50,871 nucleotides of DNA from an uncultured Candidatus Saccharibacteria bacterium (GCA_964408305.1 CAYOYW010000001.1:11410-62280); one strand, 5' to 3'. Counted from the stretch's first letter, positions 2,397 to 24,119 are shown. Notes: a model not told the origin generated them from the sequence alone. A program made the numbers and translations.

Positions 2397-2397
2397 G

Positions 2398-6277: not shown

Positions 6278-6294
6278 ATCGTTATAGTGTTTCT

Positions 6295-7083: not shown

Positions 7084-7105
7084 GTAGTGTATACTTTCTT
7101 TTATA

Positions 7106-8008
7106 ATGGAAACGGAAGAAAATCGTACTTCGTATAAGCCAAGTAGACAGTTCCTGCTACGAGGAAGTATTGCTACAGGAACAATCATTCTCATTCTTAT
7201 TTTTCAAACGCAGTGGTTTGCGCATCTCTTCGTAAAAAAAGAGAAAGCTTCTCTTACTCAAACACCTGAAACTGTTGGCGGGCTCATTTCAAAAGATACA
7301 AACGGAAATGGTATTCCTGATTGGGAAGAAAAACTTTGGGGGCTTAACCCGGCAGTGCTCTATACAAATGGCATTTCAAATAAACAAATTATAGAAGAAC
7401 GAAAAAAGACGCTCGGTATCAGTGAGACAAAAAATGCGCCACTTAACGAAACTGATCTTCTTGCACAGCAGCTCTTTAGTATCACTGGAGCGCTCGATGC
7501 CTCAGGACAGAGCGCTGAGACACTAAATACAATTGGTGCAGATCTTGGAAACTCAATAAAGGTAAAGCCTGTATCAAATACCTACACAAGCAGTAATATA
7601 AAAACTGTTCAAACAACCACAGCCTCACTCAAGACATACTATGATGCTGTTACAAAAGTTGTTTCAACCTATAAAACAGAAGTAAGCAGTATTGACATAC
7701 TCGTGTCTTCCCTTGAAACAGGGGACTTTAGCCGTATCGACGACATTAAAAAGACCGCAGCACTCTACTTAGACTTTAGTAAGAAGCTCCAGAAAATACC
7801 GGTACCTATAGGTATTGCTGAGTACCACCTCTCCCTTATGAATGGTTTTGCAGGTATGGCTAAGTCATTTGACTACCTTCTTGATATTGAAGACAACGGG
7901 GTGAACGCACTTGCTGGTATTAGTATTTACAAAAACTATGCGAGTCGTGTTGAAGAGTCTCTCACGAAGCTCAATGATTATTTTGTAGAGTACGGTATAC
8001 TACGATAG
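7106..8008 (+). CDS. N-terminally membrane-anchored hypothetical protein
   Basis: One TM helix (GSIATGTIILILIFQTQWFAHLF), followed by a DTNGNGIPDWEEKLWGLNP acidic loop motif and a helical domain. TATACT at 7090-7095. Confidence 0.6.
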   Translation: METEENRTSYKPSRQFLLRGSIATGTIILILIFQTQWFAHLFVKKEKASLTQTPETVGGLISKDTNGNGIPDWEEKLWGLNPAVLYTNGISNKQIIEERKKTLGISETKNAPLNETDLLAQQLFSITGALDASGQSAETLNTIGADLGNSIKVKPVSNTYTSSNIKTVQTTTASLKTYYDAVTKVVSTYKTEVSSIDILVSSLETGDFSRIDDIKKTAALYLDFSKKLQKIPVPIGIAEYHLSLMNGFAGMAKSFDYLLDIEDNGVNALAGISIYKNYASRVEESLTKLNDYFVEYGILR

Positions 8009-8012
8009 TACT

Positions 8013-10265
8013 ATGTATAAGGTAAAATTCTTTATTCTTTTCTCTCTCATCATCTCTCTTGGGACTACTCCTCTTATTTCTTTCGCCCAAACAACAGGTG
8101 GTGGTTCATACGATCCAAATGCTTCATCAACAACAGGAAAAAGTTTTTCTGGAAGTAGTTTCAGTGGTGTCGGTGGAGCAGTTGCAGGATGTGCAAATGT
8201 TGGCGGCATGCTTGTAGGAGCAGTGAGCGGTCTTTTTAGTAAGTCAGATAGCAGTAGCGGGAGTGGGGGAAGTAGTGTTACTGGAAATCAACCTCATAGC
8301 TGGGGGGATGGTTCCGAAGAAAATGGTGGCGGTCAAGATGTCCCAACAAATGATACCTCTACCCAAGGAGAAGTAAGCCAAGTTAAAAAAGAGGAAAAAA
8401 AAGCAAACAGAACAACAGAGTGTTTGAATGGTGTTGCGTATGCGGTTGCAAAAACACTCCTGCAACAAGTTTCAAATAAAACGCTCAACTGGGTAAACAA
8501 AGGGCTCGGGGGAAACCCGCTTTATGTGCAAGACCTCTCTTCAAATCTTCGAACAATTAGAGATGAGAAGCTACAAACATACCTCAACACAGTCAATGAC
8601 GAAAACCCTATCTTTGGAAACGCAATCCGTTCTGCAGTAACACAGCAAGTGACAGGCATTAGCGATGGTTACTTAAACAAACCTATGAACACCCCTGAAG
8701 CAAAGCAGTACCAAGCATTTCAGCAAAACTTCTCAAGTGGTGGATGGGGTGCGCTCCTTAATATGAACAACAACCCTGTCGGAGCCCTCTTTAATAGTTC
8801 TGATAAGATTGCGGGCTCCATTGGAATAGAACAAAAAAATAGAACTGATGAGGTACAGAGAAACAATGGCTTCCTTGATATGCGACAATGTGTGGAATAT
8901 AAAGAAAAGCCAACAAATGAAGAGGTGACCTGTAACGGAGGTATTCCAAAAAGTGATCTCCCTGCAGGAACAGCATGTTATCCAGATATTACAACGACAA
9001 CAGATAGTGTCAGTACAAGAGAGTGTCTTCGGTATAAAACAGTAACTCCAGGTTCAGTGATTTCAGATCAGGTCAAAAATGTCCTTGGCTCAAACACAAG
9101 ACAGCTTGAACTAGCAGATAGTATCAACGAAGTTCTCGGGGCATTTTTTGACCAGCTTATTAACAACCTTTTCCAAAGAGGGCTTGCATCCTTGCAGGGT
9201 GGTGGAAGTAAAAATGGCGGTGTTGGAAATGGCTTTGGTTCGTTTGGAAGCAATGTTGTGATTGCAACGAACGGCTCTGTTATAGGAAACGGTGCAAGTA
9301 GTAATGTGTTTGGCTATCGAAACCCAGGAAGTGGATACGATGTACAAGACTTTGATATTTCTCGACCACAAATGCTTCGTAGTGTCCTCCAAGCTCAGTA
9401 CAACTTCTTAAATGCAAGTAAAGATTCCCAAATAGCAATGCGGTCAGTTGTTCCAACACTTGGTGCGCTTGATTACTGTATTCCAGGACCAAACCCTACC
9501 TGGGCAGACGGGCTAGATACTAATTTCCAAAACTTTATAGGATCATTTACCACACCGTCACGAGATAGAACATTTGCTGGAAAGTTCCTTTCTGCCGCAA
9601 CAAGTAGCACTATTCAGGCAATTGTGAAGCTTTTTGGTGGTGGAGGAAATACAAAAGAGCTCAACTATGTTCTTGTTGGAGAGCCAGAGCTTTTCAATAA
9701 AGTTAGTGGTGGTACCCGAAGTATGGGCGTATGGGAGTATGACTACTATACAAAAGACTATGCTCGAGGAGTAAAAAATGTTGATGGTGATTGGATTCGT
9801 AACTGGCTTGCTGATGGATACAACCGTATTGTTGCCAAGTATCAAACAAACTTTACTCAACCAAAGATAACCGCACTCTTTACTGCTGTTGACCCAGATA
9901 CTGCTCGAGCAAAGAACTTTGTTAAAGAGTCCCTCAAAGAAACAGCAAATCTCATTTCATATGCAAACAATACAACAGAGCTTGATATAAACTACGACCA
10001 AGCAATTAGTGAAAAAGAAGATCAAATAGCAGAACTTGAGGAAATTAGAAGAGAGGCGCTCCAAATAGTAAAAGCGGCAAAAGCGCGACATATTGCCGAA
10101 CAAGCAGCAGCAGGAACACCGGTAAATCTTGCTTGTATCAATAAAGCATATGTTATTGATGAAAGCCCTATTACTGGACAGGCGAGAAAAGAATCAGACA
10201 TACCAAATCCTATTATTCAAAAAGCTCGAGACGCAAATAGGTATTTCTATGATCACCTAAATTAA
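8013..10265 (+). CDS. large secreted hypothetical protein (750 aa)
   Basis: Signal peptide MYKVKFFILFSLIISLGTTPLISFAQ. A Gly/Ser-rich low-complexity stretch, several Cys pairs, and a C-terminal coiled-coil-like segment (EKEDQIAELEEIRREALQIVKAAKARH). No family recognised. Confidence 0.65.
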   Translation: MYKVKFFILFSLIISLGTTPLISFAQTTGGGSYDPNASSTTGKSFSGSSFSGVGGAVAGCANVGGMLVGAVSGLFSKSDSSSGSGGSSVTGNQPHSWGDGSEENGGGQDVPTNDTSTQGEVSQVKKEEKKANRTTECLNGVAYAVAKTLLQQVSNKTLNWVNKGLGGNPLYVQDLSSNLRTIRDEKLQTYLNTVNDENPIFGNAIRSAVTQQVTGISDGYLNKPMNTPEAKQYQAFQQNFSSGGWGALLNMNNNPVGALFNSSDKIAGSIGIEQKNRTDEVQRNNGFLDMRQCVEYKEKPTNEEVTCNGGIPKSDLPAGTACYPDITTTTDSVSTRECLRYKTVTPGSVISDQVKNVLGSNTRQLELADSINEVLGAFFDQLINNLFQRGLASLQGGGSKNGGVGNGFGSFGSNVVIATNGSVIGNGASSNVFGYRNPGSGYDVQDFDISRPQMLRSVLQAQYNFLNASKDSQIAMRSVVPTLGALDYCIPGPNPTWADGLDTNFQNFIGSFTTPSRDRTFAGKFLSAATSSTIQAIVKLFGGGGNTKELNYVLVGEPELFNKVSGGTRSMGVWEYDYYTKDYARGVKNVDGDWIRNWLADGYNRIVAKYQTNFTQPKITALFTAVDPDTARAKNFVKESLKETANLISYANNTTELDINYDQAISEKEDQIAELEEIRREALQIVKAAKARHIAEQAAAGTPVNLACINKAYVIDESPITGQARKESDIPNPIIQKARDANRYFYDHLN

Positions 10266-10270
10266 ATTTT

Positions 10271-11143
10271 ATGAGAAAAAAAATCACCACAATTTTCTTC
10301 ATTATCCTATTCATTGCACTCTTTGCTGTTGGTTTTTGGTATATTGCCAGAAATAAAGCAACAAAGAGTGGGCAGGTACCACCAACATTTAAAGAGTTTC
10401 TTGGTATCGGACCTTCACAAAAACCAGGAAGCTCCTCTCAGGGGGGAGAGCTCTCTTCTGATTTTACAGGTGGTGAGAGCGGAAATGAAGAAAGTACAGG
10501 ATCACAAGGCGGAACAGTGCCAACACCTACTATTGGAACAAGTGTCTTTACAAATATTGGTTACACACCAACAACCTTTCCTCCTGTTGACTACACCCCG
10601 GGTGGTGGTGGACAAACAGGTGGAGGATCTACTGGTGGCGGGGGGACTGTCGTCGTTGGTAGCGGAGGAGGTATTATCACACCCCCTCCTGCCGATCCAA
10701 ATCTCCCAGAGTGTGGGCCTGCAGATCTCAATATAAACTTCACGCAAGATGAAATAGATAGATTGAATGCTCTTAAGAGCCGCTTCATGAAAGTTGCCGA
10801 AACACTCAATACTGATGCAGATGTTGCGACTGAGCTTGCAAACTACGATACTTTTAAAATTAAAACTCAGAAACTCACCGAGTTAAACACCTATTGCATT
10901 AATAGTCCTGTGTATACAGGTGCACAAGCAACGGTGGTTGCTTCACAACCTTATGGAGCAGTTGTTCCTGGAGGAAATGGAGAAATCAATTATCGAGTAC
11001 CAACACCGTTTTGGCATGACAGCAACAAAGACAATCAGGCGCTCGTCCATCAAGGTTCAAACTTTCGAGGTATTTTCTCTGATCCTGACACCATTTTCCC
11101 AGAGAGGAGTATGGAGCACGCACTTCGCTTGAACTTGTGGTAA
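10271..11143 (+). CDS. membrane-anchored Gly-rich hypothetical protein
   Basis: N-terminal TM helix (ITTIFFIILFIALFAVGFWYIA), a G/S/T/P-rich linker (GGGGQTGGGSTGGGGTVVVGSGGG), and a C-terminal globular domain. Confidence 0.6.
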   Translation: MRKKITTIFFIILFIALFAVGFWYIARNKATKSGQVPPTFKEFLGIGPSQKPGSSSQGGELSSDFTGGESGNEESTGSQGGTVPTPTIGTSVFTNIGYTPTTFPPVDYTPGGGGQTGGGSTGGGGTVVVGSGGGIITPPPADPNLPECGPADLNINFTQDEIDRLNALKSRFMKVAETLNTDADVATELANYDTFKIKTQKLTELNTYCINSPVYTGAQATVVASQPYGAVVPGGNGEINYRVPTPFWHDSNKDNQALVHQGSNFRGIFSDPDTIFPERSMEHALRLNLW

Positions 11144-11175
11144 GAGTAAAGCATATAGTGATATACTAGCTATTA

Positions 11176-14100
11176 GTGAATCTAATTTCTTTTTTAAGAA
11201 AGAAGTATACAAAACCTTTTGTAGGAGCACTTTTTGCTTTCGTTTTTTTATTTTCTTTTTTCAGTACTACAGGAAAAGCAGAGGCGCAGCTCTACGACAG
11301 TTATAAAAATCTATTTAAAGGGAACGATCCTGCTCCTTCGCTCAATTTTGTTTCTCTTGTTAAAAAGGATCCTACTGATGCCACAAAGCTTGTTTTTGAT
11401 TTCAAATTCAATCTTCAAGCGAGTTTTGACCTAAACGTTGGCGGAAGTGCTCCAAAAGATTGGCACTGGAACCATATTAGAGATTTTGATAATCCAAATG
11501 TGTTTATTCTTCGAGTCTGTAATGCGGATGCAACAGGGGAAGGCGCTTGTCTATTTTCTGTTATTCCATATGCAAGTAAAGCATCAACAGACCAAGACCT
11601 GAAAAACTTAGTCTGTAAGAACGGTACCTGTACACTACCGACAGAGGGAGGTGTTTGGCCAAAGATCTATCACTACAAGGCAAAAGCATCGGGTCCTAAC
11701 TTAATATATGTTGACGAACAGTTTCATAGATTCAATGTCACTTTTGATGTAAAAGATTTAGCATTTCTAAAAGACGGAAAGTTAGACACTCCAGAGACTT
11801 TAGCTAGCCTCTTCAAGATTGGTTCGAAAGATACCTGGAAAGCTGATGCTTGGTATTGTTCAGGAATAGTAAGTGGAGAGCCGCTTCCAACAGAAGATGG
11901 ATCAGATCCGGATATTCGACAGTTTAAAAAGATCTGCGGTGATGGGCACCCTTATTTTAAAATCGCAACTTCTGGTACTTTCAAAATGCCTCAAACCGTT
12001 GATGAAGGGTTGGGTCAAACACCTGCTACAGATCCAAATATTGGAACAGCCATGGAAACGGATACACTTCCTGTCTGTGGTGTTACTTATTTCAGTGATG
12101 GGTCTTTGATGGGTTGTGTCGCCCGAGTCGTGTATTACGTTTTCTATTGGCCGATTGCCTGGGTTGCTGGAATACTTGGAAAGGTATTTGATTTCTTCCT
12201 GGGATATTCCTTGAGTGACGAGTCATATCGAGCAGCTATTATTGTGACCGGGTGGAAACTTGTCCGAGATATATCAAACATCTTCTTTATCATCATCCTT
12301 ATTTGGACCGGGCTTGCAACTGTGTTCAACATAAGCAGTATATCGATGAAAAAGATTGTCCCTGCAGTTATCATCAATGCGCTGCTTATCAATTTCAGTC
12401 TATTTGGAACGCAAGTGGTGATCGATATTTCAAATATTACCGCTAGACTTTTCTACAACACTATGGCTGTTTGTGACGGAGAGTGTCGATATATTGAAAC
12501 CTCAAAAGGAAAGATTATAGAGAACCCTAGTACTGATACTGTCGGTGGGTACAAATCACTTTCCTCAAAAATAGTTTCATCGTTCAACCCACAACGTGTA
12601 TTCTCGACAACTTCACTTGATGATGGAGCTGCGCTGAAAAAAGAAAAACCTGCAGAAGGTAGCCAGAGTGCAACAGTAGGAGGACTTAACTCTCAAGCAG
12701 CTGATGAGAACCTTTCAAATGCATCTACAAAATCTCGTTACTCTAGCGACTATGCCGGCTACTTTATCGTTATCACATTGATTGCAGCGTTCATCATGTT
12801 CGCCATTGCAAAGATGTTCTTCGGGGTCATGTTTATGTTCGTAGGGCGAGTAGTAGGACTCTACCTTACAATGATCTTTTCTCCATTTGCAGTCCTCACT
12901 CGAGGGAATATGCCAATTGTCGGCGGCATCAAGGATCTTGCATGGGAAAACTGGAAGAAGGAGCTCTTTGAATACGCACTCCTTGCTCCGATATTTGTAT
13001 TCTTCCTTTACATCATTTATGCATTTATAAACTCCGACATGACAAAGGTGTTTCTCTCAAGCAACAACAGCGCAGGCTTCATGGAAACAGTACTCACAAT
13101 TGCAATACCGATGATTATTATTTATACGCTTATCGGGTACGGTGTTGGTCTTGCAAAGAAATACGCCGGAAAAGCAGGTGAAATGCTCCAAAGTCTTGGA
13201 TCTAAAGCGGTTGGTATGGCAACCGGTGCTGCTGTTGGTGTTGCAACAGGCGGAGCAGCTCTAGCTGGAAGAGGAGCGACAAGCCTCCTTAACAAAGGGG
13301 TTGGTACATGGGCAGCAGCAAACAAAGATAGCAACGTTTTGGCTGGCGGTGTTAACAAATTCCTCCAATGGGGACAAAAATCGAGTTTTGATATTAGAAA
13401 CACCAAGCTTGGCGAAGGGTTTAATAAAGGCGTTGCAGGACTTGGTATCAAGCAAGAAGATAAAGTCTCTTCCTTTGTGGGGCTCGGACAGAAAGACTAT
13501 CTAGGTGGAAATGTGAAGATTAGAAAGGATCGAGAAAAAGAAAAGGAGGAGCGAGCAACAAAGAAAAATGACATGAGTCATTTGACTGACAAACAAGCAC
13601 AGGATGTGTGGGATCGTCGAACAAAGAAACAAACTGAAAAAGAAGCAGACGAGGTATGGGCAAAGGGAGAGCTTGATAAGCGAAAGAATGCAGACCCTAC
13701 TTTCAAAGCTCTTGAAAAAGTTGCAGAGCGACTGGAGGCAGATCTCAAGACAGCAGTTGAATCGAAGAATACGACAAACGAAAAAATCATTCGAGAGCAG
13801 TTGGCAACAAATAAGAAGGAGCGAGATCAGATCGTCGCAATGACGATGACACCAAGTATTGAGGCTGCTATCAAAGACAAGTCACACCAAGAGACAAAAG
13901 AGTACAAAGACGCACTCAAGAGCGCACAAGATGATTCAAAGAAAAAATATGGCGAAGTTAAAAGTGCAGAAGATCTTTCGAAAGCAATGCGATACGAATA
14001 CGCTCAGAGAATGCTACAAGACTCGCTCACTCTCTCAGAAAAGGAGAAGCGAAAGGGTCTCTCACAGACGGGCGGCATCGTGGCAACAGCTCTATCACAA

Positions 14101-14661
14101 CTTATACCTGGAGTTGGACTTTCAGCAGCAGTTGTCGGCGGACTCGTTGGTAACTACATAGACTCACAGCAAGAGGCAGACAAGCGAGTGTTTGAAAAGA
14201 TTGTTAAAGACTTTGAAAAGAGTAAGAATAAGGATACGAAGCTTGGTAGATTAAAGACAAAACTTAAAGAAGTTGATGATCTGATAGACGGCCATATTCG
14301 AACTGTCCTTGGAAGAGCTGTTGATGCAAGTCTTAGTGATTTAACGGATGACCAAAAGACAGAACACTTCAATAAAGCACGGTCAGACGCCCAAACAGCA
14401 GCAGATATAGCGGAAGACGAATACAAAGAAGCAAGAGAGAAATACAAGAGAACAAAACTACAAAGCGATCTGGACGAGATGAATAGAAGAAGCACTGAAC
14501 GACAGAGAACAAAGGATGAACTAAACGATCTAAACAATGCTCAGAAGAACAAGGATTCTATCAAAGACAACATTGAGGAGGAAGAAAGAAAAGCAAAAGA
14601 ACAAGACGACAAAAAAGATAAAAAGAAGGACGATGGTAAGAAGTCAGGTGAAGAAAAATAA
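11176..14661 (+). CDS. VirB6/TrbL-like polytopic membrane protein with an extracytoplasmic N-domain and a long K/E-rich tail (1161 aa)
   Basis: GTG start with TATACT 8 nt upstream. Signal-like N-terminus ending KAEAQ. At least 6 hydrophobic helices lie between ~12100 and ~13270 (VVYYVFYWPIAWVAGILG, IFFIIILIWTGLATVF, IVPAVIINALLINFSLFG, YFIVITLIAAFIMFAIAKMFFGVMFMFVG, LLAPIFVFFLYIIYAFI, LTIAIPMIIIYTLIGYGV). From ~13480 onward it is a charged coiled-coil-like tail. The family assignment rests on topology and context only. Confidence 0.65.
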   Translation: MNLISFLRKKYTKPFVGALFAFVFLFSFFSTTGKAEAQLYDSYKNLFKGNDPAPSLNFVSLVKKDPTDATKLVFDFKFNLQASFDLNVGGSAPKDWHWNHIRDFDNPNVFILRVCNADATGEGACLFSVIPYASKASTDQDLKNLVCKNGTCTLPTEGGVWPKIYHYKAKASGPNLIYVDEQFHRFNVTFDVKDLAFLKDGKLDTPETLASLFKIGSKDTWKADAWYCSGIVSGEPLPTEDGSDPDIRQFKKICGDGHPYFKIATSGTFKMPQTVDEGLGQTPATDPNIGTAMETDTLPVCGVTYFSDGSLMGCVARVVYYVFYWPIAWVAGILGKVFDFFLGYSLSDESYRAAIIVTGWKLVRDISNIFFIIILIWTGLATVFNISSISMKKIVPAVIINALLINFSLFGTQVVIDISNITARLFYNTMAVCDGECRYIETSKGKIIENPSTDTVGGYKSLSSKIVSSFNPQRVFSTTSLDDGAALKKEKPAEGSQSATVGGLNSQAADENLSNASTKSRYSSDYAGYFIVITLIAAFIMFAIAKMFFGVMFMFVGRVVGLYLTMIFSPFAVLTRGNMPIVGGIKDLAWENWKKELFEYALLAPIFVFFLYIIYAFINSDMTKVFLSSNNSAGFMETVLTIAIPMIIIYTLIGYGVGLAKKYAGKAGEMLQSLGSKAVGMATGAAVGVATGGAALAGRGATSLLNKGVGTWAAANKDSNVLAGGVNKFLQWGQKSSFDIRNTKLGEGFNKGVAGLGIKQEDKVSSFVGLGQKDYLGGNVKIRKDREKEKEERATKKNDMSHLTDKQAQDVWDRRTKKQTEKEADEVWAKGELDKRKNADPTFKALEKVAERLEADLKTAVESKNTTNEKIIREQLATNKKERDQIVAMTMTPSIEAAIKDKSHQETKEYKDALKSAQDDSKKKYGEVKSAEDLSKAMRYEYAQRMLQDSLTLSEKEKRKGLSQTGGIVATALSQLIPGVGLSAAVVGGLVGNYIDSQQEADKRVFEKIVKDFEKSKNKDTKLGRLKTKLKEVDDLIDGHIRTVLGRAVDASLSDLTDDQKTEHFNKARSDAQTAADIAEDEYKEAREKYKRTKLQSDLDEMNRRSTERQRTKDELNDLNNAQKNKDSIKDNIEEEERKAKEQDDKKDKKKDDGKKSGEEK

Positions 14662-14663
14662 CT

Positions 14664-15236
14664 ATGGAAAACGATAATCTTAAAACAACTCAAAACGTAA
14701 ATGTATCGGATGACTTCGTAGATGAATATAGCGAGGCACTTAGTGCCGTTCCAGAAGAAGTCCGTCGCTTCATGTGGAGTGATGCTTTTAAGATCATCAT
14801 CAAGGCAATTGCTAAGACATATAATCTCTCCGAAGAACAAAGCAAAGTAGTCGAGCAGATCGCAGTGGAAACACTCCTAGAAATCATTACTCCGATTGCT
14901 CGTCAAGCGAGACTTTCGAGTGCAAATATCACTGGGGATTTGCAGGATGCTGTTTTACAAGCGATAAATGAAGAAATTGTCTCACGGGCACTCACACAAA
15001 TAGAGATACAGAATGACCTTGATACAGAAGAGGCTACAGCAGAAGAAACAACCTCTCAGGCAGTAATATCTGCCCCTTCGCCACTTGAAGCACTGGCAAG
15101 CATTCAGGAAAAGCTTGCAAAGCCTGCAGCAATTGCCCCAATAAAACGAGACTATTCTCTGGAAAAACCAGCCGCTAATAGCACACCAGCACAAAAACCC
15201 ACATTTGATATCTACAGAGAAGTTCCAGAGAAATAA
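14664..15236 (+). CDS. acidic cytoplasmic hypothetical protein
   Basis: 190 aa with no signal peptide or TM helix, D/E-rich. Begins 2 nt after the VirB6-like gene. Confidence 0.55.
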   Translation: MENDNLKTTQNVNVSDDFVDEYSEALSAVPEEVRRFMWSDAFKIIIKAIAKTYNLSEEQSKVVEQIAVETLLEIITPIARQARLSSANITGDLQDAVLQAINEEIVSRALTQIEIQNDLDTEEATAEETTSQAVISAPSPLEALASIQEKLAKPAAIAPIKRDYSLEKPAANSTPAQKPTFDIYREVPEK

Positions 15237-15255
15237 GTTCACCCGCCAAAATTTT

Positions 15256-15510
15256 ATGCATTATGTATATGTGCTAAAAAGTAAAAAAGATGCGAAAATA
15301 TACATAGGGTGCACAGGTGACCTCAAAAGGAGGTTCGAAAAACATAATGCGGGGCAAGTTGCTTCAACAAAAAATAGAAGACCTCTTCAAATTATATTTT
15401 ATGAAGCATTTCTTAATAAATCTGATGCATTTCAAAGAGAACAGTGGTTAAAAACAGGATGGGGTCGAAATCATCTTATGAAAATTCTTAGTAATTATTT
15501 TAAAATTTAG
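15256..15510 (+). CDS. stand-alone GIY-YIG nuclease-domain protein (UPF0213/YhbQ-like, 84 aa)
   Basis: Track ORF 15205..15510 trimmed to MHYVYVLKSKKDAKIYIGCTGDLKRRFEKHN...REQWLK. It carries the GIY (YVY) and YIG motifs plus the conserved R, E and N positions. Confidence 0.8.
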   Translation: MHYVYVLKSKKDAKIYIGCTGDLKRRFEKHNAGQVASTKNRRPLQIIFYEAFLNKSDAFQREQWLKTGWGRNHLMKILSNYFKI

Positions 15511-15518
15511 GCGGGTAA

Positions 15519-15920
15519 ATGCAATTTAAAGTACCACAATTTATTGACATGGAAGATAAGGTTTTTGGAAATCTTTCTTTCAAGCAGTTCGCCTATCTTG
15601 CAGGTGGAGGAGGACTTGCATATCTTTCGCTTCGCCTTACGCCAGCATTTATTGCAATATTACTCGTTCCAGCCTTTGTTGGCCTTGCACTCGCGCTTGC
15701 GTTTGTAAAAGTAAATGAGAAACCTTTTTCACATGCACTTGAGTCTTTTGTACGCTTTTATATGCGTTCACGACTCTACCTCTGGAAAAAACAAGAGCAA
15801 AAACTAAAGAAGCAAGAGGAGTTACCAGCAAATCAAAAGTCAATCCATGCTACACTCTCTGAGAGTAAACTAAAGACGCTTTCATGGAGTCTTGATGTTA
15901 TCGATTCTCAAAAGAAATAA
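15519..15920 (+). CDS. PrgI/VirB3-like two-TM T4SS protein
   Basis: MQFKVPQFIDMEDKVFGNLSFKQFAYLAGGG matches the PrgI-family N-terminal pattern (KVP..I..E.K..G..t.rQ). Two hydrophobic helices follow. It lies just upstream of the VirB4-like ATPase. Confidence 0.7.
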   Translation: MQFKVPQFIDMEDKVFGNLSFKQFAYLAGGGGLAYLSLRLTPAFIAILLVPAFVGLALALAFVKVNEKPFSHALESFVRFYMRSRLYLWKKQEQKLKKQEELPANQKSIHATLSESKLKTLSWSLDVIDSQKK

Positions 15921-15923
15921 TCT

Positions 15924-16556
15924 ATGGCAATAAAAAGTAGTCCAACACAAGAATTTGTTCCTGTAAAAGAGATACGGGACGGTGTTATTGTCCTTAAGGA
16001 CGACACGCTCGCTTCTATTGTGCTTGTCTCTTCTATAAACCTCTCCCTTAAATCTTATGACGAACAACGAGCAGTCATTGGCCAGTTTCAAAACTTCCTT
16101 AATACACTCGACTTCCCAATGCAAATAGTGATCCAGTCACGAAGGTACGATGTACGGCCTTATATTCTCACACTTGAAAATCGCCTCAAACAACAAACCG
16201 AGCCGCTGTTGCGGGTTCAAACACAGGAGTATATTGAATTCATTCAAACCTTCACTGAACAAGTGAACATTATGAGGAAAAATTTCTTTGTCGTCGTACC
16301 ATACAACCCCTCAATTATTAGTCAGACAAGTGGGCTTGGAAAAATCTTTTCTTTCTTTGGAAAAAAACAAACAGCAGCAGATCTTACCGCAAGTTTTGAA
16401 GAACAACGAACACAATTAGAGCAGCGGATGAGTGTTGTTGAGCAGGGGCTTTCTCGACTCGGGCTTCGGGTTGCACAACTTGGCACACAAGAGGTGATTG
16501 AACTACTCTATAAAACATTCAATCCCGGAGAAACAACGGTCCATGCAGAGGGGTAA
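15924..16556 (+). CDS. hypothetical protein, possibly a free-standing VirB4 N-domain-like paralogue
   Basis: 210 aa, soluble. Its opening (VPVKEIRDGVIVLKDDTLASIVLVSSINLSLKSYDEQRAVIGQFQNFLNTLDFPMQIVIQSRR) has the same pattern as the N-terminal region of the adjacent ATPase (IEITSKSMRIGDKIVRTFFVISYPRYL...FDIAIFINPIE). The similarity was judged by eye only. Confidence 0.5.
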   Translation: MAIKSSPTQEFVPVKEIRDGVIVLKDDTLASIVLVSSINLSLKSYDEQRAVIGQFQNFLNTLDFPMQIVIQSRRYDVRPYILTLENRLKQQTEPLLRVQTQEYIEFIQTFTEQVNIMRKNFFVVVPYNPSIISQTSGLGKIFSFFGKKQTAADLTASFEEQRTQLEQRMSVVEQGLSRLGLRVAQLGTQEVIELLYKTFNPGETTVHAEG

Positions 16557-16597
16557 AGAAGCTTTTTTCTTTCTTTGTATAGTATACTCATAGTATT

Positions 16598-18424
16598 ATG
16601 GCGCTTTTTGGGTCAAGCCAAAAAAACAAACAAGCAACTGGGGCAAAAAGTCTTCCTGTGTTACCTGAAGAGGCATATTCATGGGCAACGAGTGAGCTTG
16701 CTGACAATATCGCTCCCTCTGCTATAGAGATCACCTCAAAGTCAATGCGCATAGGGGACAAGATTGTCAGAACATTTTTTGTTATCTCTTACCCGCGATA
16801 CCTCAATGACAATTGGCTGACACCAATCATCAACCTCGATAAGGTCTTTGATATAGCTATTTTTATTAATCCAATAGAAACCGCAGAACTTCTCAAAAAG
16901 TTCCAAAAGAAAATTGCGGAGGTAGAAAGCCAAATCATGGTACGACAACAAAAAGGTCTTGTGCGAGATCCTATGCTTGATACTGCATACCAAGACCTCG
17001 AAGAGCTTCGAGACAGTCTCACGCAAGCACAAGAAAAAATGTTCACTGTTGGTTTTTACATTAGTGTTTATGCGGATAATGAAAAAGATCTCTTCCGAAC
17101 AGAAAGTGAAATTCGCTCGATGCTTGAATCAAAACTCATTTATATAAAGCCAACACTTTTTCAAGAAGAGGATGGTTTTAGAACAATCACACCACTTGGA
17201 ATTGATCGTTTGAATGTTACTCAAAAACTCAACTCAGAGCCTATTTCAAGCATGTTTCCTTTTGTGTCCTTTGATTTAACCTCAGACGAAGGAATTCTTT
17301 ATGGGGTAAATAGACACAATTCGAGCCTTGTTATTTTTGATCGTTTTTCTCTTGAAAATTACAACTCTATTATTTTTGCAAAGTCTGGTGCAGGAAAATC
17401 TTTTGCAACAAAACTTGAAATCATTAGAACACTCATGTTCGATACTGATGTTATTGTGATTGACCCTGAACGAGAGTATGAATATCTTGCTGAGTCTATT
17501 GGTGGTCGGTACTTCAATATTTCACTCTCTTCTGATAACCATATTAATCCTTTTGACTTACCAATCCCTCGAGAAGACGAAGCTCCTGCTGATGTTCTTC
17601 GAAGCAATATTATTAACCTTGTAGGACTCTTTCGTATTATGCTTGGAGGGCTCACTCCAGAAGAGGACTCTATTATCGATAGGGCGATCACAGAAACTTA
17701 CGCACTCAAGGATATTGATGCAAACTCTGATTTTGCAAGTATTGAGCCGCCACTGCTCTCTGATTTTGAAATGGTGCTCTCTGGGATGGAAGGGAGCGAA
17801 TCTATTCTCCAAAGACTCACAAAGTACACAAAAGGTTCTTGGGCAAGCTTTATTAATCAACCAACAAATGTAGATATTAATAAAAAGTTTGTGGTGTTCT
17901 CAGTACGAGACATGGAGGATGATCTCAAGCCCGCGGCCATGTATATCGTGACACACTTTATCTGGAATGCGGTTCGAAAAGAACTCAAAAAGAGGCTCTT
18001 AGTGGTGGATGAGGCGTGGTGGATGATGAAAAGCGATGATACTGCATCCTTCCTTTACTCAATTGCAAAACGAGGGAGAAAGTATTACCTTGGACTCTGT
18101 ACAATCACACAGGATGTGGGGGATTTTATGAAAAGCCCATACGGAGTGCCTATTGTCACAAACTCTTCTATTCAGCTCCTCCTCAAACAGTCCCCGAGTA
18201 CTATGGAAGTGCTCCAAAAAACATTTAACCTCACCGATGAAGAAAAGTACCTTCTCCTCGAATCTGGTGTTGGAGAGGGGATCTTCTTTGCGGGACTGAA
18301 ACATGTTGCTATTAAAATTATAGCTTCCTATACAGAGGAGCAAATTGTCACTTCGGACCCATCGCAAATCCTCGCTATAAAGCGAGCAAAACAAGAGTTT
18401 AGGGAACAACAAGGTCAGCTCTAA
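16598..18424 (+). CDS. virB4: VirB4/TrbE/PrgJ-class T4SS ATPase
   Basis: Walker A IIFAKSGAGKSFAT (~17380-17405) and Walker B KRLLVVDEAWWMM, then RKYYLGLCTITQD. 608 aa. TATACT lies 9 nt upstream of the ATG. Confidence 0.85.
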   Translation: MALFGSSQKNKQATGAKSLPVLPEEAYSWATSELADNIAPSAIEITSKSMRIGDKIVRTFFVISYPRYLNDNWLTPIINLDKVFDIAIFINPIETAELLKKFQKKIAEVESQIMVRQQKGLVRDPMLDTAYQDLEELRDSLTQAQEKMFTVGFYISVYADNEKDLFRTESEIRSMLESKLIYIKPTLFQEEDGFRTITPLGIDRLNVTQKLNSEPISSMFPFVSFDLTSDEGILYGVNRHNSSLVIFDRFSLENYNSIIFAKSGAGKSFATKLEIIRTLMFDTDVIVIDPEREYEYLAESIGGRYFNISLSSDNHINPFDLPIPREDEAPADVLRSNIINLVGLFRIMLGGLTPEEDSIIDRAITETYALKDIDANSDFASIEPPLLSDFEMVLSGMEGSESILQRLTKYTKGSWASFINQPTNVDINKKFVVFSVRDMEDDLKPAAMYIVTHFIWNAVRKELKKRLLVVDEAWWMMKSDDTASFLYSIAKRGRKYYLGLCTITQDVGDFMKSPYGVPIVTNSSIQLLLKQSPSTMEVLQKTFNLTDEEKYLLLESGVGEGIFFAGLKHVAIKIIASYTEEQIVTSDPSQILAIKRAKQEFREQQGQL

Positions 18425-18448
18425 GAGTTTTGATGGTATACTTTTCTT

Positions 18449-19411
18449 ATGTACAAGAAACTCTGTATCGGAATTTCACTTATATTTTTCTTCATCACTC
18501 CTAGTTTTGCGCAGTTTGAAAACGCGAGCCTTGCGCCCGATATCTCCATTGTTGCTATACCAGAGAACCCAAAACCGGGGGAGACTGTAACGCTTGAAGC
18601 AATAAGCTACGGTGCTGATTTAAATCAGGCAAGTCTCATATGGAAATATAATGATAAAACCATTGCTTCGGGTATCGGTCGAACCAAAATAACACTCACT
18701 GCTCCTCGTACGAACTCTTCAGGATTTATTTCTCTTTCTGTTGGTGGTGCAGGTTTCCAGCAGACACAAATTGGATATACGCTTCGTTCTGCAAGTGTTG
18801 ACCTCCTCTGGGAAGCAATAGACTCATATACCCCTCCCTTCTACAAAGGAAAAGCGCTTCTTTCAAAAAATGCATTGGTACGGGTAACTGCTATCCAGAC
18901 AAGAAGTGCACCAAAGAACCTTTCTTTTGAGTGGTCACGAAACGACAGCGCTGTTCCAGCGTACTCTGGATATAACAAAAACGCATTGATTTTCAAGAAT
19001 GAAACACTAAAAAACGAGGAGCGGATTTCAGTAACAGCAAGTGGTGGACTCTTTAGTGGCAGTAAAAATCTTTCTTTGCTACCAGGAAAACCAACAATAC
19101 TCATGTATCAAAAAAAAGAGGGGTTTATTAACTATGCGAGAGGATATACGGATGATTTTGAAACAACTGATCCTGGTATTACACTTCGATTTGAGCCATA
19201 TTTCTTTTCGATACCAAGAGGGAGTATCTCAAAAGATCTCAGTTTCGACATAGAAAACAACAGTACTCCACTGTATGGGGAAAAAGAACAGAACGAAATT
19301 AGTCTCTCGAACCCAGGAAGCAGACAAAAGAGTGTGCTTCGTGTCTCGGTAAGTACAATCCTGTACTCACTGCAGAATGCTGCTCGATCTTTTTCGGTAT
19401 CTTTCAACTAA
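18449..19411 (+). CDS. secreted beta-rich hypothetical protein
   Basis: Signal peptide MYKKLCIGISLIFFFITPSFAQ and Ig-like repeated strands (PKPGETVTLEAISYG...). TATACT lies 6 nt upstream of the ATG. Confidence 0.6.
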   Translation: MYKKLCIGISLIFFFITPSFAQFENASLAPDISIVAIPENPKPGETVTLEAISYGADLNQASLIWKYNDKTIASGIGRTKITLTAPRTNSSGFISLSVGGAGFQQTQIGYTLRSASVDLLWEAIDSYTPPFYKGKALLSKNALVRVTAIQTRSAPKNLSFEWSRNDSAVPAYSGYNKNALIFKNETLKNEERISVTASGGLFSGSKNLSLLPGKPTILMYQKKEGFINYARGYTDDFETTDPGITLRFEPYFFSIPRGSISKDLSFDIENNSTPLYGEKEQNEISLSNPGSRQKSVLRVSVSTILYSLQNAARSFSVSFN

Positions 19412-19444
19412 GTGCATGTAGTATACTGAGAGCATCCTCTCACT

Positions 19445-21286
19445 ATGAAGACATTTAAAAAAATATTCTGTCTTTTTTACCTCTTTCTTTTCACGCTCTC
19501 TTCTATTCCAAAAGAGTCTCTTGCTCAACAAATATATCCTTATGCCTTTGACGCAAAAGCACAGGGGACACAAATAACTGTCACACTCTCTGGTGTTCCA
19601 GCTGCAGATAGGGGGAAAGCAAATATATTCATAGAGCCCCTAAACACATTTCCTATAGGCCTTGTCTGCCCAATAGGGAGCTCTGATATTAAATGCGCAG
19701 CCTCTGTCCAACCAACAAAAACGATATCACAGAACGGCACTATTACTTGGACTCGTTCTGCCTCTGTCTCTGGGGGATCTATTTACTATATTCGAGCAGA
19801 GATAGATTTTGGTGGCACAAAAGCGCCTTATATTTCAGCAGTAAAATGGGTTGTAACTGGTGCTGAAACAGTTGATGCCCAGTGGCCACTTACCTATGGT
19901 AAGGAATGTAACCCATCAACAATTATTGGGAAGCTAAACAACACCAACAAAGCAGATTTCACTATTACAATTCAGTACGCAGGAACAGCAATGCCTGCTG
20001 ATGAGTCAACTCCAGCGGGCGCTTCCGGCCCTATACAGTCAGTAAATGGTATCAACGAAGATGGCACCTATAGCTTTATCCTGCAGAACCTTGAGAAAAA
20101 TACACAATATTTTGTAAAACAAATTATCAGATCAAAAAATGGTGCACTTGATATAAAGACTGATAAATTTAAAACCTGTCAGGGATATATACCAGCAGGC
20201 TCAAACGATGAAGCAAACGATTTCAATAAAAGAAGCTATCGACTCCTTGCACCAATATCTGAAAAACTCCAAATCGTGCTCGATCAGGATCTTTGCCAAG
20301 AGTATGTAAATGAAGGAAAGCTTCAGCCGGGATCTTGTGATAACCAAATTAGCGACTTCCTTAATATTATCCTCCAAATACTTATCGGGCTTGCAGTTGT
20401 CATGCTTGTCGTACAAATAATTCTGAAGGGGTATGAGTACATGGTAACTGACACTCCTTTTAAAAAGACAGCTGCAAAAAGTAGAATTATGGAAGCTGCT
20501 GCTGGGCTTCTCCTTGCACTCTCTGCATATGTTATTTTGAACACAATAAACCCAAGACTAGTATCTCCTGATGTAAATATTCAAAAGCTGGACATTGGAG
20601 TGGAAGACCTTAATATCTCGGGAGCTGCAACATTTGATGGAAAACCTATAAAGGTTGATTTGAAAAAAGAGGCTTACCCAGCAGCAAAAATAGCATCCCA
20701 AAAAACCGGGGTTGATATAGCTTTTATTTTGGCAATGTTCCAGCAAGAATCAGGGAGTGGTAGTAATAGTGGTAAATGTCTTTCGACTCAATCAAATATG
20801 AGGGTTGCTGACTATCAGTATTTAAACAATGAACTAATTCCTTTAATAAACAGTGAGTACCCAAACAAAACTAAACTTGTAAAGGATTCTGTAAATGTAT
20901 CATGTACAAGCAAAACAAGCACTGGTGGTGCTGGAGATGGTGGGGCTATAGGTTATACGCAGTTTATGCCAACAACATGGAAGGAGTATCGAGAGAGCGC
21001 CAAATCATTACTTGGCCATGAGCCATATCCATGGGACACAGGAGATGCTCTAATGATGACAGCGCTATTTTTAAAGAATAAGGGTGGTGCTATAAATAAT
21101 GAAGCATCTCAAGAACAAGCTGCTTGTAAATACTTTGGAACCTGCACTAGATCAAATGGTAAACCGTGGCTCATTTCTTGTAGTGGTGAACAAAAAACTT
21201 ATGGGCAATGTGTTATAGGAAAAAAGAAGTACTATCAACAAGTAATAGATGATGCTATCAAAAAAGGCGAGGCCTGGGTTAAATAG
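19445..21286 (+). CDS. secreted protein fusing a VirB2/TrbC-like pilin hairpin with a C-terminal lytic transglycosylase-like domain
   Basis: Signal peptide followed by a ~270-aa beta-rich domain. YRLLAPI...ISDFLNIILQILIGLAVVMLVVQIILKGYEYMVTDTPFKKTAAKSRIMEAAAGLLLALSAYVILNTINPRLV (~20348-20562) reads as two hydrophobic helices joined by a basic loop. The C-terminus carries AFILAMFQQESGSG (catalytic Glu context) and GYTQFMPTTWKEY (MltB/SLT-type motif). Confidence 0.7.
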   Translation: MKTFKKIFCLFYLFLFTLSSIPKESLAQQIYPYAFDAKAQGTQITVTLSGVPAADRGKANIFIEPLNTFPIGLVCPIGSSDIKCAASVQPTKTISQNGTITWTRSASVSGGSIYYIRAEIDFGGTKAPYISAVKWVVTGAETVDAQWPLTYGKECNPSTIIGKLNNTNKADFTITIQYAGTAMPADESTPAGASGPIQSVNGINEDGTYSFILQNLEKNTQYFVKQIIRSKNGALDIKTDKFKTCQGYIPAGSNDEANDFNKRSYRLLAPISEKLQIVLDQDLCQEYVNEGKLQPGSCDNQISDFLNIILQILIGLAVVMLVVQIILKGYEYMVTDTPFKKTAAKSRIMEAAAGLLLALSAYVILNTINPRLVSPDVNIQKLDIGVEDLNISGAATFDGKPIKVDLKKEAYPAAKIASQKTGVDIAFILAMFQQESGSGSNSGKCLSTQSNMRVADYQYLNNELIPLINSEYPNKTKLVKDSVNVSCTSKTSTGGAGDGGAIGYTQFMPTTWKEYRESAKSLLGHEPYPWDTGDALMMTALFLKNKGGAINNEASQEQAACKYFGTCTRSNGKPWLISCSGEQKTYGQCVIGKKKYYQQVIDDAIKKGEAWVK

Positions 21287-21308
21287 CTTTATATAGTACA
21301 ATTATCTT

Positions 21309-22559
21309 ATGCGTAAGGGAATTCTAATTTTAATACTAATACTATTTGTTGTAGTGGTTGGTTGGTCTTTTTACAAAAAATCAAAATCTACCACTGGGGC
21401 AGACCAAACGAGTGGCTTCAAGTCATTTTTTCCATTTGGAAACAGTAATAGTGCCACAGAACCAGACGGAACACTATCTCAAAACGAGCCAAGAACAATA
21501 AATACTGACGGGTCAACCACTAATTCTCCATTCAAAAAAATTACCTCTCACAGCGTTTCTGGTTTTACTTTCTTCCTCTCAAAAACAACCCTTACGACAC
21601 CTACACAAAATACAAAAGAGAAAAGTAAGGTAGAAACGGTTATTGATAAAAATATCCGCTATGTCTCAAGAACGAGTGGCTATGTATACGAAATAAAAAA
21701 TGGAGGTACCCCAATACAGGTAAGTAATATCTATATCCCAAATATTTATGAAGCGCTCTTTAGTCCAAATGGAGGAAGTGTAATACTCCGCTTTTTGAGA
21801 GACGACCAGAGGACAATTGCAAGCTATGTTGTGCCTGTACCGGACAAAAACCCAGATGGAACAAGAACACAAAAAGATGGTATATATCTCCCTGATAGTA
21901 CACTCGCACTTGATATAGCTCCGGATAGTACAAGCATCGCTCGAGTAGTTCCTGATGGGGAGCTTACAACTCTTTCAAGCACAACACTTGCAAATACGGG
22001 GAGAAAAGAGCTTTACCGGGGGCCGTTTCGCGAATGGCTCGTTTCTTGGCCAACTCAAAAGAGTGTTTTTCTACAGACAAAAGCAAGTGGAACAACAGTC
22101 GGTTTTTTATATGAAGTAGATTCTGTAAACAAGAGGCTCTCTCGTATCCTTGGAGATGTGCAAGGGCTTACCACCTCTGTGAGTCCTGATGGGGCATATA
22201 TTCTTTATTCAGAGAGCAACAAAGACTCTTTTACTACAAAACTTCTTTCCACAAAAACCGGTTCAGTAAAAACACTCGGCCTTTCTGTACTTCCTGAAAA
22301 ATGTGTCTGGACAAAAAGTAACGATCTTATTTGTGCAGGAGGAAATACACCTCCAGGTACTTACCCTGACGACTGGTATGCTGGTATTATCTCCTTCTCT
22401 GATAGGATATTTCGCATTTACTCTGGAGCTGGAGCATTCGATGTCCTCTATAGTGGGGATGAAGAGTTTGATATGACAAACCTACGACTCGATGAAGAAA
22501 CAAGTACGCTGTACTTTATCAACAAGAAAGATGCCTCTCTCTGGCAGTTTATTTTTTAG
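21309..22559 (+). CDS. membrane-anchored putative beta-propeller (PD40/TolB-like) protein
   Basis: N-terminal TM helix (GILILILILFVVVVGWSFY). Repeated SPDG/SPNG-type strands (FSPNGGSVILRF, VSPDGAYILYSE). The 3' end overlaps convergent yidC by 11 nt. Confidence 0.55.
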   Translation: MRKGILILILILFVVVVGWSFYKKSKSTTGADQTSGFKSFFPFGNSNSATEPDGTLSQNEPRTINTDGSTTNSPFKKITSHSVSGFTFFLSKTTLTTPTQNTKEKSKVETVIDKNIRYVSRTSGYVYEIKNGGTPIQVSNIYIPNIYEALFSPNGGSVILRFLRDDQRTIASYVVPVPDKNPDGTRTQKDGIYLPDSTLALDIAPDSTSIARVVPDGELTTLSSTTLANTGRKELYRGPFREWLVSWPTQKSVFLQTKASGTTVGFLYEVDSVNKRLSRILGDVQGLTTSVSPDGAYILYSESNKDSFTTKLLSTKTGSVKTLGLSVLPEKCVWTKSNDLICAGGNTPPGTYPDDWYAGIISFSDRIFRIYSGAGAFDVLYSGDEEFDMTNLRLDEETSTLYFINKKDASLWQFIF

Positions 22560-23288: not shown

Positions 23289-23546
23289 TTAGGGAAGATC
23301 AACGCTTGGTGTAGTACCACTATGACAACGACTTACTCTATAAACAACCTTTTTAAAGGCAGAGAAAAAAGAATATTTTTGAAAACAGGTAGCGGCGTAC
23401 TCAGAACATGTTGGATAAAAGACACAGCTTGGTTTTGGATAAAAGGGAAGTAGACGAAGAATACCAAGTGACGGTGAAAAGACTTTTTGGTAAATCTTAA
23501 TAAAAAAGAGAAATAAGTTATTAGGTAATTTTTTTAAAAAGTTCAT
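23289..23546 (-). CDS. yidD: membrane protein insertion efficiency factor YidD
   Basis: IKIYQKVFSP...CVFYPTCSEYA...RVSRCHSG, the YidD signature. Overlaps the rnpA 3' end by 26 nt. Confidence 0.8.
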   Translation of the reverse strand: MNFLKKLPNNLFLFFIKIYQKVFSPSLGILRLLPFYPKPSCVFYPTCSEYAATCFQKYSFFSAFKKVVYRVSRCHSGTTPSVDLP

Positions 23547-23991: not shown

Positions 23992-24119
23992 ATAGTGAGA
24001 GCATTATACACAAAAAAAGCTGCTTTATCAAGCCTTACAGAGACTGCTATAATCAACACTATTCACAGGTTATCAACACTTTTGTTTTAGAACCCGTGCA
24101 TCGTATTATTAACCTATTC

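Follow-up and report, generated by a model that had tools for sequence, protein, structure and literature searches.

Patescibacteria live attached to other microbes and make up a large part of bacterial diversity. We analysed a stretch of 50,871 nucleotides (the window) deposited as DNA of an uncultured Candidatus Saccharibacteria bacterium (GCA_964408305.1, CAYOYW010000001.1:11410-62280), and asked what is encoded by a block of twelve genes at positions 7,106 to 22,559. The block carries the core of an MPF-FATA-type type IV secretion system (T4SS), consisting of a probably VirB6-like protein (g4), a PrgI/VirB3 protein and a VirB4 that is split into a TrsD-like gene and an ATPase gene, with no VirD4 and no relaxase in the window. 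The cluster is probably a resident host-interface machine in a Paceibacteria/Nomurabacteria-like genome and not a conjugation apparatus; DNA conjugation is an unlikely function. The headline conclusions on such clusters are already known in print, and the window is an instance of a described system: papers from 2023-2025 report a chromosomal T4SS-like machine carried by most Patescibacteria, in several classes beside dnaA. A preliminary description of this DNA had called the apparatus minimal, which it is not in any new sense, as the same conclusions have been published (PMC12102498).

The ATPase gene of the block (Table 1) scored 382 bits against the NCBIfam model NF045971 ('VirB4-like conjugal transfer ATPase, CD1110 family'), for which the cut-off is 325, with a match spanning profile positions 186-732 of 752. 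It also matched Pfam P-loop_TraG (1.3e-25) and AAA_10, and the VirB4 motifs are intact (Walker A, SGAGKS; Walker B, VVDEAW). The protein is 87-96% identical to many Paceibacterota/Minisyncoccia proteins and 29-35% identical to the best VirB4 of Firmicute/Actinobacteria plasmids; judged by similarity, it groups with Patescibacteria proteins and not with the VirB4 of conjugative elements. For comparison within the lineage, one genome per GTDB species was scanned, which gave 80 loci, mostly labelled Nomurabacteria or Paceibacterota. Counts over 52 relatives refer to the loci with sufficient upstream sequence.

The N-terminal domain of VirB4 is found in the gene directly upstream, which had been listed as a soluble orphan and proved instead to be TrsD-like. 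Its product matched NCBIfam VirB4_plasma (3.9e-13, profile positions 101-279), TrsD (3.2e-8) and positions 2-119 of the CD1110 profile, and it aligned with amino acids (aa) 28-197 of a one-piece 797-aa clostridial VirB4 (E-value 1e-8). Since the N-terminal parts of three VirB4 models, as well as TrsD, matched this protein, we read it as a detached VirB4 N-domain. It was found in 80/80 loci. The same arrangement, with a TrsD gene between a VirB3-like gene and virB4, is seen in TrsC-TrsD-TrsE of pGO1/pSK41, an MPF-FATA subclass (pGO1 order as given in PMC12102498). The window protein reached 33.6 bits against the TrsD family, far under its cut-off of 200, and thus resembles TrsD without being a curated member. 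The small membrane protein encoded next to it matched the PrgI family PF12666 at 5.6e-11 (43.3 bits; cut-off 27), and its gene was present in 52/52 relatives.

The VirB6 candidate, g4, was identified indirectly. The protein starts with a signal or anchor and an extracellular N-domain, crosses the membrane in ~7 helices (aa 300-670) and ends in a long, charged coiled coil; its gene is present in 51/52 relatives. g4 itself, at full length or as the core, had no significant match in Pfam, NCBIfam or PDB sequence profiles; a tblastn search of 72,556 plasmids returned nothing significant, nor was an hhalign comparison with the clostridial VirB6 CD1112 significant. Within the g4 family, Pfam TrbL was matched by 3 of 46 members (best 1.3e-7), and TrbL_3 and TrbL_4 by one each. 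AlphaFold2 models were made for two proteins, g2 and the transmembrane core of g4. The g4 model had a predicted local distance difference test score (pLDDT) of 80 and a predicted template modelling score of 0.75, and its best fold match in the PDB was TrwI/VirB6 of R388 (8rt9_F; probability 0.99, E-value 0.019, template modelling score 0.39-0.42), followed by DotA. In addition, g4 occupies the position of VirB6 (CD1112) in the clostridial plasmid pCDC3875. Taken together, the TrbL matches of homologues, the TrwI fold match and the gene position indicate that g4 is probably VirB6/TrbL-like. The preliminary description had named a VirB4-class ATPase, a PrgI/VirB3-like protein and a VirB6/TrbL-like protein in these places, and had suggested checking that the ATPase scores as VirB4. 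The ATPase and PrgI assignments were borne out by matches above the respective cut-offs, and that of VirB6 stands as probable.

The setting of the block is shared by its relatives. The recurring order is uvrD, ksgA, g1, g2, (g3), VirB6, g5, PrgI, TrsD, VirB4, g9, pilin-hydrolase, g11, yidC, rnpA, dnaA, dnaN, and the junctions with ksgA and yidC are conserved. Ten parts are present in most relatives (g1, g2, VirB6, g5, PrgI, TrsD, VirB4, g9, the pilin-hydrolase and g11), and g3 is detectable in about half of the loci extending that far upstream. Across the 80 species genomes, VirB4 is 72-90% identical to that of the window, compared with 49-80% for DnaA, 34-70% for DnaN and 30-75% for YidC, and VirB4 showed the highest identity in every comparable locus. 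This ranking fits an essential resident gene. Constraint of this strength is unusual for a secretion ATPase.

The window was also searched for mobility genes, with 43 open reading frames (ORFs) scanned with Pfam and the other long ORFs read by eye from their translations. Among the 43 scanned ORFs there was no relaxase, type IV coupling protein (T4CP), VirB11, integrase or outer-membrane core, and no block protein matched a VirB7/9/10 family. The only T2SSE-family ATPase of the window, at 36328-38028, is PilB-like because it contains an MshEN domain. The ORFs recognised by eye were dnaA, dnaN, PBP1a-like, TyrRS, RuvA/B/C, PolA and TrmH-like. Flanking repeats were imperfect and no longer than about 29 nt. 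The GC content of the block (0.39-0.43) equals that of its flanks, with most of the remaining window at 0.39-0.44 and dips to 0.31-0.36 around dnaA/dnaN only.

These results bear on whether the block is an integrated conjugative element, or the decayed remnant of one, whose T4SS serves or served DNA transfer and whose mobility genes lie outside the window or have been lost. Firmicute conjugation modules do have homologues of VirB4, PrgI, VirB6 and the hydrolase in collinear order, the system has been described as conjugative in ancestry (PMC12102498), and a GIY-YIG nuclease gene lies inside the block. However, the 50.9-kb window lacks relaxase, T4CP, integrase and att-like repeats; housekeeping genes stand on both sides, at junctions conserved in 80 species; the composition is that of the flanks; VirB4 is more constrained than DnaA; and relaxases occur in just 103/3,035 Patescibacteria genomes, seldom near virB4 (PMC12102498). 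We therefore consider a conjugative element very improbable. The preliminary description had already argued for a resident monoderm-type apparatus from the absence of relaxase, VirD4/TraG, VirB11, VirB7/9/10, integrase and repeats and from a composition matching the adjacent genes. Each of these observations was reproduced within the window, and the synteny comparison that it had proposed for related Patescibacteria showed the gene set and its housekeeping flanks recurring in 80 species-representative Paceibacteria/Nomurabacteria genomes, with VirB4 under constraint.

Comparison with Firmicute CD11xx-type modules (CTn2-like, MPF-FATA) showed what is shared and what differs. Their VirB4 is of the same CD1110 family as that of the window, and the window core is collinear with them in the order VirB6, x, PrgI, x, VirB4, x, cell-wall hydrolase. 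In Clostridium botulinum pCDC3875 the order is VirD4, hypothetical, VirB6, PrgI, hypothetical, VirB4, hypothetical, SLT+NlpC/P60. Unlike the window, this plasmid has a VirD4-like T4CP directly upstream and a MOBP relaxase typing. Its VirB4 is a one-piece protein of 797 aa and its VirB6 has 260 aa, whereas the VirB4 of the window is split and 33% identical. The plasmid hydrolase has a single transmembrane segment with SLT and NlpC/P60 domains and no pilin-type hairpin, whereas the hydrolase of the window is hairpin-anchored.

Within Patescibacteria, the window has close published counterparts. In a survey of 3,035 genomes, VirB4 was found in 2,417 and formed a monophyletic clade inside MPF-FATA; TrsD, VirB3, VirB6, VirB2 and VirB1 were encoded near virB4, and in Paceibacteria dnaA, dnaN, rnpA, ksgA and rpmH adjoined it (Quinonero-Coronel 2025, PMC12102498). 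The window has the same lineage and arrangement as these Paceibacteria loci and belongs to the set, with no difference in kind. The conserved orphans g1, g2, g5, g9 and g11 go undescribed in the main text of that study.

A second counterpart is cluster SEML1_0006-0019 of Southlakia epibionticum, which is essential for epibiotic growth by transposon sequencing (Tn-seq) and lacks recognisable coupling and relaxase proteins (Wang 2023, PMC10633639). In the Tn-seq table, the genes flagged essential include those for VirB4 and PrgI, the gene preceding virB4, SEML1_0011 (999 aa) and the pilin genes SEML1_0017-0019 (PMC10633639). Like the window, the cluster of Southlakia ML1 (Saccharimonadia) is chromosomal and near the start of the genome numbering. 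Shared between the two are a VirB6-like giant, a PrgI-family protein, PF18895 pilins, and a VirB4 (DUF87) of roughly 610 aa that is immediately preceded by a hypothetical gene and has peptidoglycan hydrolases encoded downstream. They differ in how the pilin and the hydrolase are encoded. Southlakia has six separate pilin genes, of which SEML1_0017-0019 encode about 125-140 aa, whereas the window has one fused gene, encoding 613 aa. The Southlakia hydrolases are likewise separate genes, one M15-like and another with two lysozyme-like and a cysteine-peptidase domain. Southlakia also has an NTF2-like protein, read as VirB8-like, of which none was found in the window, and the block in the window is flanked by ksgA and yidC. 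In a 2025 review, these systems are listed as possibly pilus-forming and as the first case in which a T4SS is essential to the cell that carries it.

The fused gene, g10, is the sole hairpin-bearing ORF of the window. Its product is modular and consists, in order, of a signal peptide, an Ig-like N-module, a VirB2-like hairpin (aa 300-368) and a lytic transglycosylase (aa 412-547). The hairpin scored 31.3 bits against T4SS_pilin PF18895 (cut-off 26.6) and the enzyme 25.9 bits against SLT_2 (cut-off 24.3), so that both domains foreseen in the preliminary description, a VirB2/TrbC-like hairpin and a lytic transglycosylase, exceed the Pfam gathering score. The TrbC profile matched g10 at 0.0019, and the SLT motifs QQES (catalytic E-S) and GYTQFMP are present. 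With 259 aa before the hairpin and 236 aa after it, g10 is unlike a small free pilin (roughly 70-140 aa processed). Loci of the lineage have a single pilin-type gene, or now and then a tandem pair, and lack an array of free-standing pilins. Among about 75 homologous ORFs from the window and its relatives, the protein extends C-terminally by 100 aa or more in 71 of 79 hidden Markov model matches. Searching 1.84 billion representatives gave 7,534 hairpin homologues, and the best 150 of these were nearly all 400-930 aa long with the hairpin internal. Four metagenomic proteins of 966-1775 aa (P0401, P0402, P0414 and P0423) contained 10-16 tandem pilin hairpins; these could be fused pilin-array polyproteins or artefacts of gene calling across arrays.

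The C-terminal part of g10 varies strongly between relatives, although the family has a conserved junction reading 'LNTINPxLL'. In 68 g10-type proteins, the C-terminal modules formed 21 unrelated sequence clusters, and those that could be named were all peptidoglycan enzymes: NlpC/P60, VanY, YkuD, SLT_2 (as in the window), SLT_3, M15_4 and SLT. Different enzyme modules were found in genomes with a common N-terminal module, although the VirB4 of each of these genomes is 84-90% identical to that of the window (loci L001, L002, L011, L021 and L077 show the swap with a common N-terminal module). Tandem paralogues in one genome also differ in the enzyme module while having the N-terminal module in common. 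The main text of PMC12102498 mentions neither a fusion of VirB2-like and VirB1-like parts in one polypeptide nor enzyme polymorphism, the main text of PMC10633639 likewise lacks the polymorphic enzyme module on a pilin-like gene, and the polymorphic pilin-hydrolase fusion of this lineage may be new.

Two readings of g10 were weighed. In the first, the hairpin is a mere anchor: there is no pilus, g10 is a VirB1-type hydrolase that clears the cell's own peptidoglycan for a short channel of the Gram-positive type, and the variety of enzymes reflects the chemistry of the own wall. T4SS hydrolases of Gram-positive bacteria are membrane-anchored and modular, as in pCDC3875 with its single transmembrane segment; g10 occupies the position of that hydrolase, and a 613-aa 'pilin' far exceeds any known VirB2. 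On the other hand, the hairpin matched PF18895 in 41/46 orthologues and TrbC/VirB2 in 15/46 and is flanked on both sides by invariant motifs, the Firmicute counterpart has no pilin match, and free pilins of the same Pfam family lie inside the Southlakia cluster and are essential by Tn-seq. Furthermore, enzyme swaps at 84-90% VirB4 identity and between tandem paralogues are hard to explain by own-wall chemistry. We regard the anchor reading as rather unlikely. In the second reading, the Paceibacteria T4SS pilin would be a polymorphic 'armed pilin', in which an Ig-like adhesin that varies and a VirB2 hairpin that does not are joined to an exchangeable peptidoglycan enzyme (SLT, NlpC/P60, VanY/M15 or YkuD). 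It would be displayed or released by the motor on a surface filament to cut the host wall at the contact site, and rapid enzyme exchange would track host wall chemistry and help to set host range. In this full form the proposal is speculative, and we hold it with low confidence. If it were true, the enzyme exchange would resemble that of polymorphic toxins or phage endolysins.

The remaining block proteins are mostly predicted envelope proteins of no or faint family resemblance. The secreted, beta-rich g9 follows virB4 directly in 77/80 loci; it had no PDB sequence match, and Ig_3/PKD_3 were weakly matched in a few orthologues, which suggests that it is probably built of Ig-like repeats. The g11 profile had 12 matches in the PDB, all of them TolB chains and none strong (best E-value 0.011). 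g11, which had no Pfam match and is present in 46/52 relatives, is thus probably a TolB-like beta-propeller, as far as profile similarity can tell. The soluble g5 stays an orphan, as it had first been listed, with no Pfam or PDB match and none in Pfam for its positional analogues. It is one of a very divergent and fast-evolving family, members of which occupy the slot between VirB6 and PrgI in 63/63 loci. Its N-terminal region is helical and conserved, and a disordered linker leads from there to a C-terminal D-P-Y that is near-invariant. The residues D182, P183 and Y184 are each at least 90% conserved, and the family's D-P-Y tail reads 'DIYREVPEK' in the window (alignment A10). This tail may act as a docking peptide that binds a partner, for instance VirB4.

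Upstream of VirB6, g1 has a calcium-binding-like motif, D-x-D-G-D-G-x-x-D-W-E-E, followed by a helical region; its invariant residues include D64, W73 and E75. The g1 family was found in 36/52 relatives and matched no Pfam or NCBIfam family and no PDB profile. The secreted g2 (47/52 relatives) begins with a signal peptide, continues through a G/S-rich linker and a conserved core containing Cys, and ends in a long helical stretch. No Pfam match was found in 29 orthologues, and the PDB profile search gave coiled-coil/helical noise only. The AlphaFold2 model of g2 (pLDDT 72.8) showed long helices and a small beta head, and a Foldseek search of the PDB and BFVD returned nothing above probability 0.2; an alpha-pore-forming toxin, a flagellar protein and a V-ATPase stalk were rejected as candidates at probability <0.2. 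g3 evolves fast and was detectable by BLAST in 8 loci only, while a single-linkage family that includes it fills the slot between g2 and VirB6 in 25/49 loci; neither g3 (Pfam, NCBIfam) nor its positional analogues in other loci (Pfam) matched a family. The preliminary view that most structural parts have no recognisable family accordingly holds for g1, g2, g3 and g5, and for g9 with its faint Ig-like resemblance, and fails for TrsD, VirB6 and the weakly TolB-like propeller.

With no detectable link of g1-g3 to any T4SS family, it could be that only the half from PrgI to g11, together with VirB6, is the T4SS, and that g1-g3 form an unrelated envelope operon of the same orientation; the co-directional run does include the clearly unrelated uvrD and ksgA. 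Yet g2 and g1 stand beside VirB6 in 47 and 36 of the 52 relatives, the genes being a few bases apart, and all three are predicted envelope proteins like the other accessory parts. On this evidence an unrelated operon appears improbable, if far from negligible.

One gene of the block is not part of the conserved set. A small GIY-YIG nuclease gene, with its likely start at ATG 15257, lies between g5 and prgI and is the twelfth gene, which the preliminary description had left undescribed. Because homologues are rare in relatives (3/80) and never at this position, we take it to be a genome-specific insertion that does not belong to the machine, apparently a selfish one tolerated by the operon. A second GIY-YIG-like candidate ORF at 48334-48831, noted for the string 'YYVYLLE', was dropped as it had no Pfam support.

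From these parts we propose a working model. At the membrane, VirB4 hexamers, with TrsD acting in trans, would dock on PrgI and VirB6. As in other T4SSs, VirB4 would serve as pilin dislocase and assembly motor, extracting the g10 hairpin and building a short surface filament or stalk, on which each g10 subunit or processed product would bear its Ig-like adhesive and peptidoglycan-cutting modules outward. g1, g2, g3, g9 and g11 would form a wall-spanning or contact scaffold, with the soluble g5 as a cytoplasmic partner. The structure would open the wall, its own and most likely that of the host, at the contact site and hold a conduit there. A piercing role is supported by the pilin-like protein, whose C-terminal module, wherever identifiable, is a peptidoglycan-active enzyme and is swapped between close relatives.

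As to what passes through the conduit, we tentatively favour uptake of host-derived material, because the cluster has no coupling protein, the phylum is auxotrophic, and a 2026 preprint on a cultivated Minisyncoccota parasite describes uptake of host RNA as well as tubular structures that extend into the host and are possibly T4SS pili (bioRxiv 10.64898/2026.06.21.733656). The main alternative, protein export, seems somewhat doubtful. Another reading is a T4SS for inward nucleic-acid import, like H. pylori ComB or archaeal Ced, which would feed host DNA or RNA to a nucleotide auxotroph. Patescibacteria generally lack nucleotide synthesis, and besides the missing export coupling protein and the RNA uptake of the preprint, VirB4 weakly matches CedB (2.4e-8) and CedD (4.1e-4). 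These matches reach only 33 bits against a cut-off of 700 for CedB and 19 bits against 600 for CedD, no CedA or ComB-specific family was matched, and the preprint itself calls the uptake route unresolved. In Southlakia, moreover, loss of comEC abolishes competence and leaves viability and growth intact (PMC12857230), which shows that ComEC-dependent DNA uptake is not the essential role. A dedicated nucleic-acid importer is thus unlikely.

Several points weigh against the overall interpretation of the block as a resident host-interface machine. The assignment of VirB6 depends on modest scores (Foldseek E-value 0.019, template modelling score about 0.4; CD1112 hhalign not significant), and g1-g3 are linked to the machine by conserved position only. 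We know of no precedent for a filament whose 613-aa subunits carry domains before and after the hairpin, and the hairpin of g10 may be only the membrane anchor of a VirB1-type hydrolase. Pfam, NCBIfam and PDB profiles revealed no VirB8-like (NTF2) part in g1, g3, g9 or g11; VirB8 was rare outside class ABY1 in the published survey (PMC12102498). The same survey counted 5,713 homologues of T4CP, spread over 2,918 of its Patescibacteria genomes and in most cases distant from virB4, and a VirD4-like T4CP may be encoded elsewhere in this genome. Finally, the proximity to the origin is not accompanied by a GC-skew switch at dnaA.

The coordinates of the block and its neighbours are given in Table 1. 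The twelve ORFs are tightly packed, with intergenic gaps of 2-41 nt, and coordinates, strand and spacing were all as first described. The run of same-strand genes begins earlier than the block, at uvrD and then ksgA, with gaps of 17 nt between these two and 22 nt between ksgA and the block; both genes are syntenic upstream of the block in relatives. The run stops at yidC, which is convergent with the block, and the orientation of the block relative to yidC and dnaA is kept in relatives. The flank of yidC, rnpA, rpmH and dnaA named in the preliminary description was found to the right of the block, with yidD and dnaN besides. A scan for promoters and terminators gave fewer promoter-like sites than in shuffled sequences, and none marks an operon boundary.

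Table 1. Genes of the secretion block and its flanks, with positions in the window and the basis of each assignment
Feature	Position	Strand	Basis or remark
Three secreted wall-related proteins	2016-4266	-	just upstream of the co-directional run
uvrD/pcrA helicase	4373-6277	+	Pfam UvrD-helicase, 8.2e-87
ksgA/rsmA	6295-7083	+	Pfam RrnaAD, 5.8e-58
g1, N-terminally anchored orphan, 300 aa	7106-8008	+	no family match
g2, secreted orphan, 750 aa	8013-10265	+	signal peptide, no family
g3, N-terminally anchored, Gly-rich linker, 290 aa	10271-11143	+	no family
g4, 'extended' VirB6/TrbL-like polytopic protein (probable), 1161 aa	11176-14661	+	indirect: Pfam matches of homologues, fold, position
g5, soluble acidic orphan, 190 aa	14664-15236	+	no family
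Small GIY-YIG nuclease gene, 84 aa	15257-15510 (ORF open from 15205)	+	Pfam GIY-YIG, 6.9e-15
PrgI/VirB3-like small membrane protein	15519-15920	+	Pfam PF12666
TrsD-like protein, VirB4 N-terminal domain as own gene	15924-16556	+	NCBIfam, alignment to clostridial VirB4
VirB4 ATPase, C-terminal motor part	16598-18424	+	NF045971, Pfam P-loop_TraG, AAA_10
g9, secreted beta-rich protein, 320 aa	18449-19411	+	weak Ig-like matches
g10, modular envelope protein, 613 aa	19445-21286	+	Pfam T4SS_pilin and SLT_2
g11, N-terminally anchored, 416 aa	21309-22559	+	weak TolB profile matches
yidC	22549-23253	-	Pfam 60KD_IMP
yidD	23289-23546	-	Pfam YidD
rnpA	23521-23844	-	Pfam Ribonuclease_P
rpmH	23857-23991	-	L34 sequence seen
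dnaA	about 24120-25466	+	translation recognised by eye
dnaN	25653-26750	+	translation recognised by eye

The block is placed next to the replication origin because of the gene context, the AT-rich stretch and five DnaA-box-like sites at 24004-25609. Across the window, the number of such boxes did not exceed chance, and the GC skew did not flip at dnaA. If oriC is at dnaA, the 18-kb run from uvrD to g11 (4373-22559) would be transcribed toward the origin, head-on to replication. On the far side of the run, the three secreted proteins at 2016-4266 comprise one with LysM and Peptidase_M23, one with PG_binding_1 and one small Cys-containing orphan; judging from these domains, the T4SS region is flanked by a second cell-wall-related gene group with at least one predicted peptidase. 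Further away, at 36328-41331, the PilB-type ATPase (T2SSE and MshEN, minus strand) adjoins two large secreted proteins. One of these, of 697 aa, has a DUF11 domain and repeated calcium-binding-like motifs ('YQCNDGxDNDxDGxxDYPxDPGCSS'), and these repeats resemble the g1 motif DxDGDGxxDWEE.

The T4SS of Patescibacteria is the first shown to be essential for the growth of its own bearer. The window does not represent a new kind of system, yet it provides a clean and complete Paceibacteria example with a defined set of conserved genes. An exchangeable cell-wall enzyme on a pilin-like protein points to the breaching of walls at the host interface as a core task of this machine. This makes g10 a candidate determinant of host range, and the polymorphic pilin-hydrolase fusion a testable lead.

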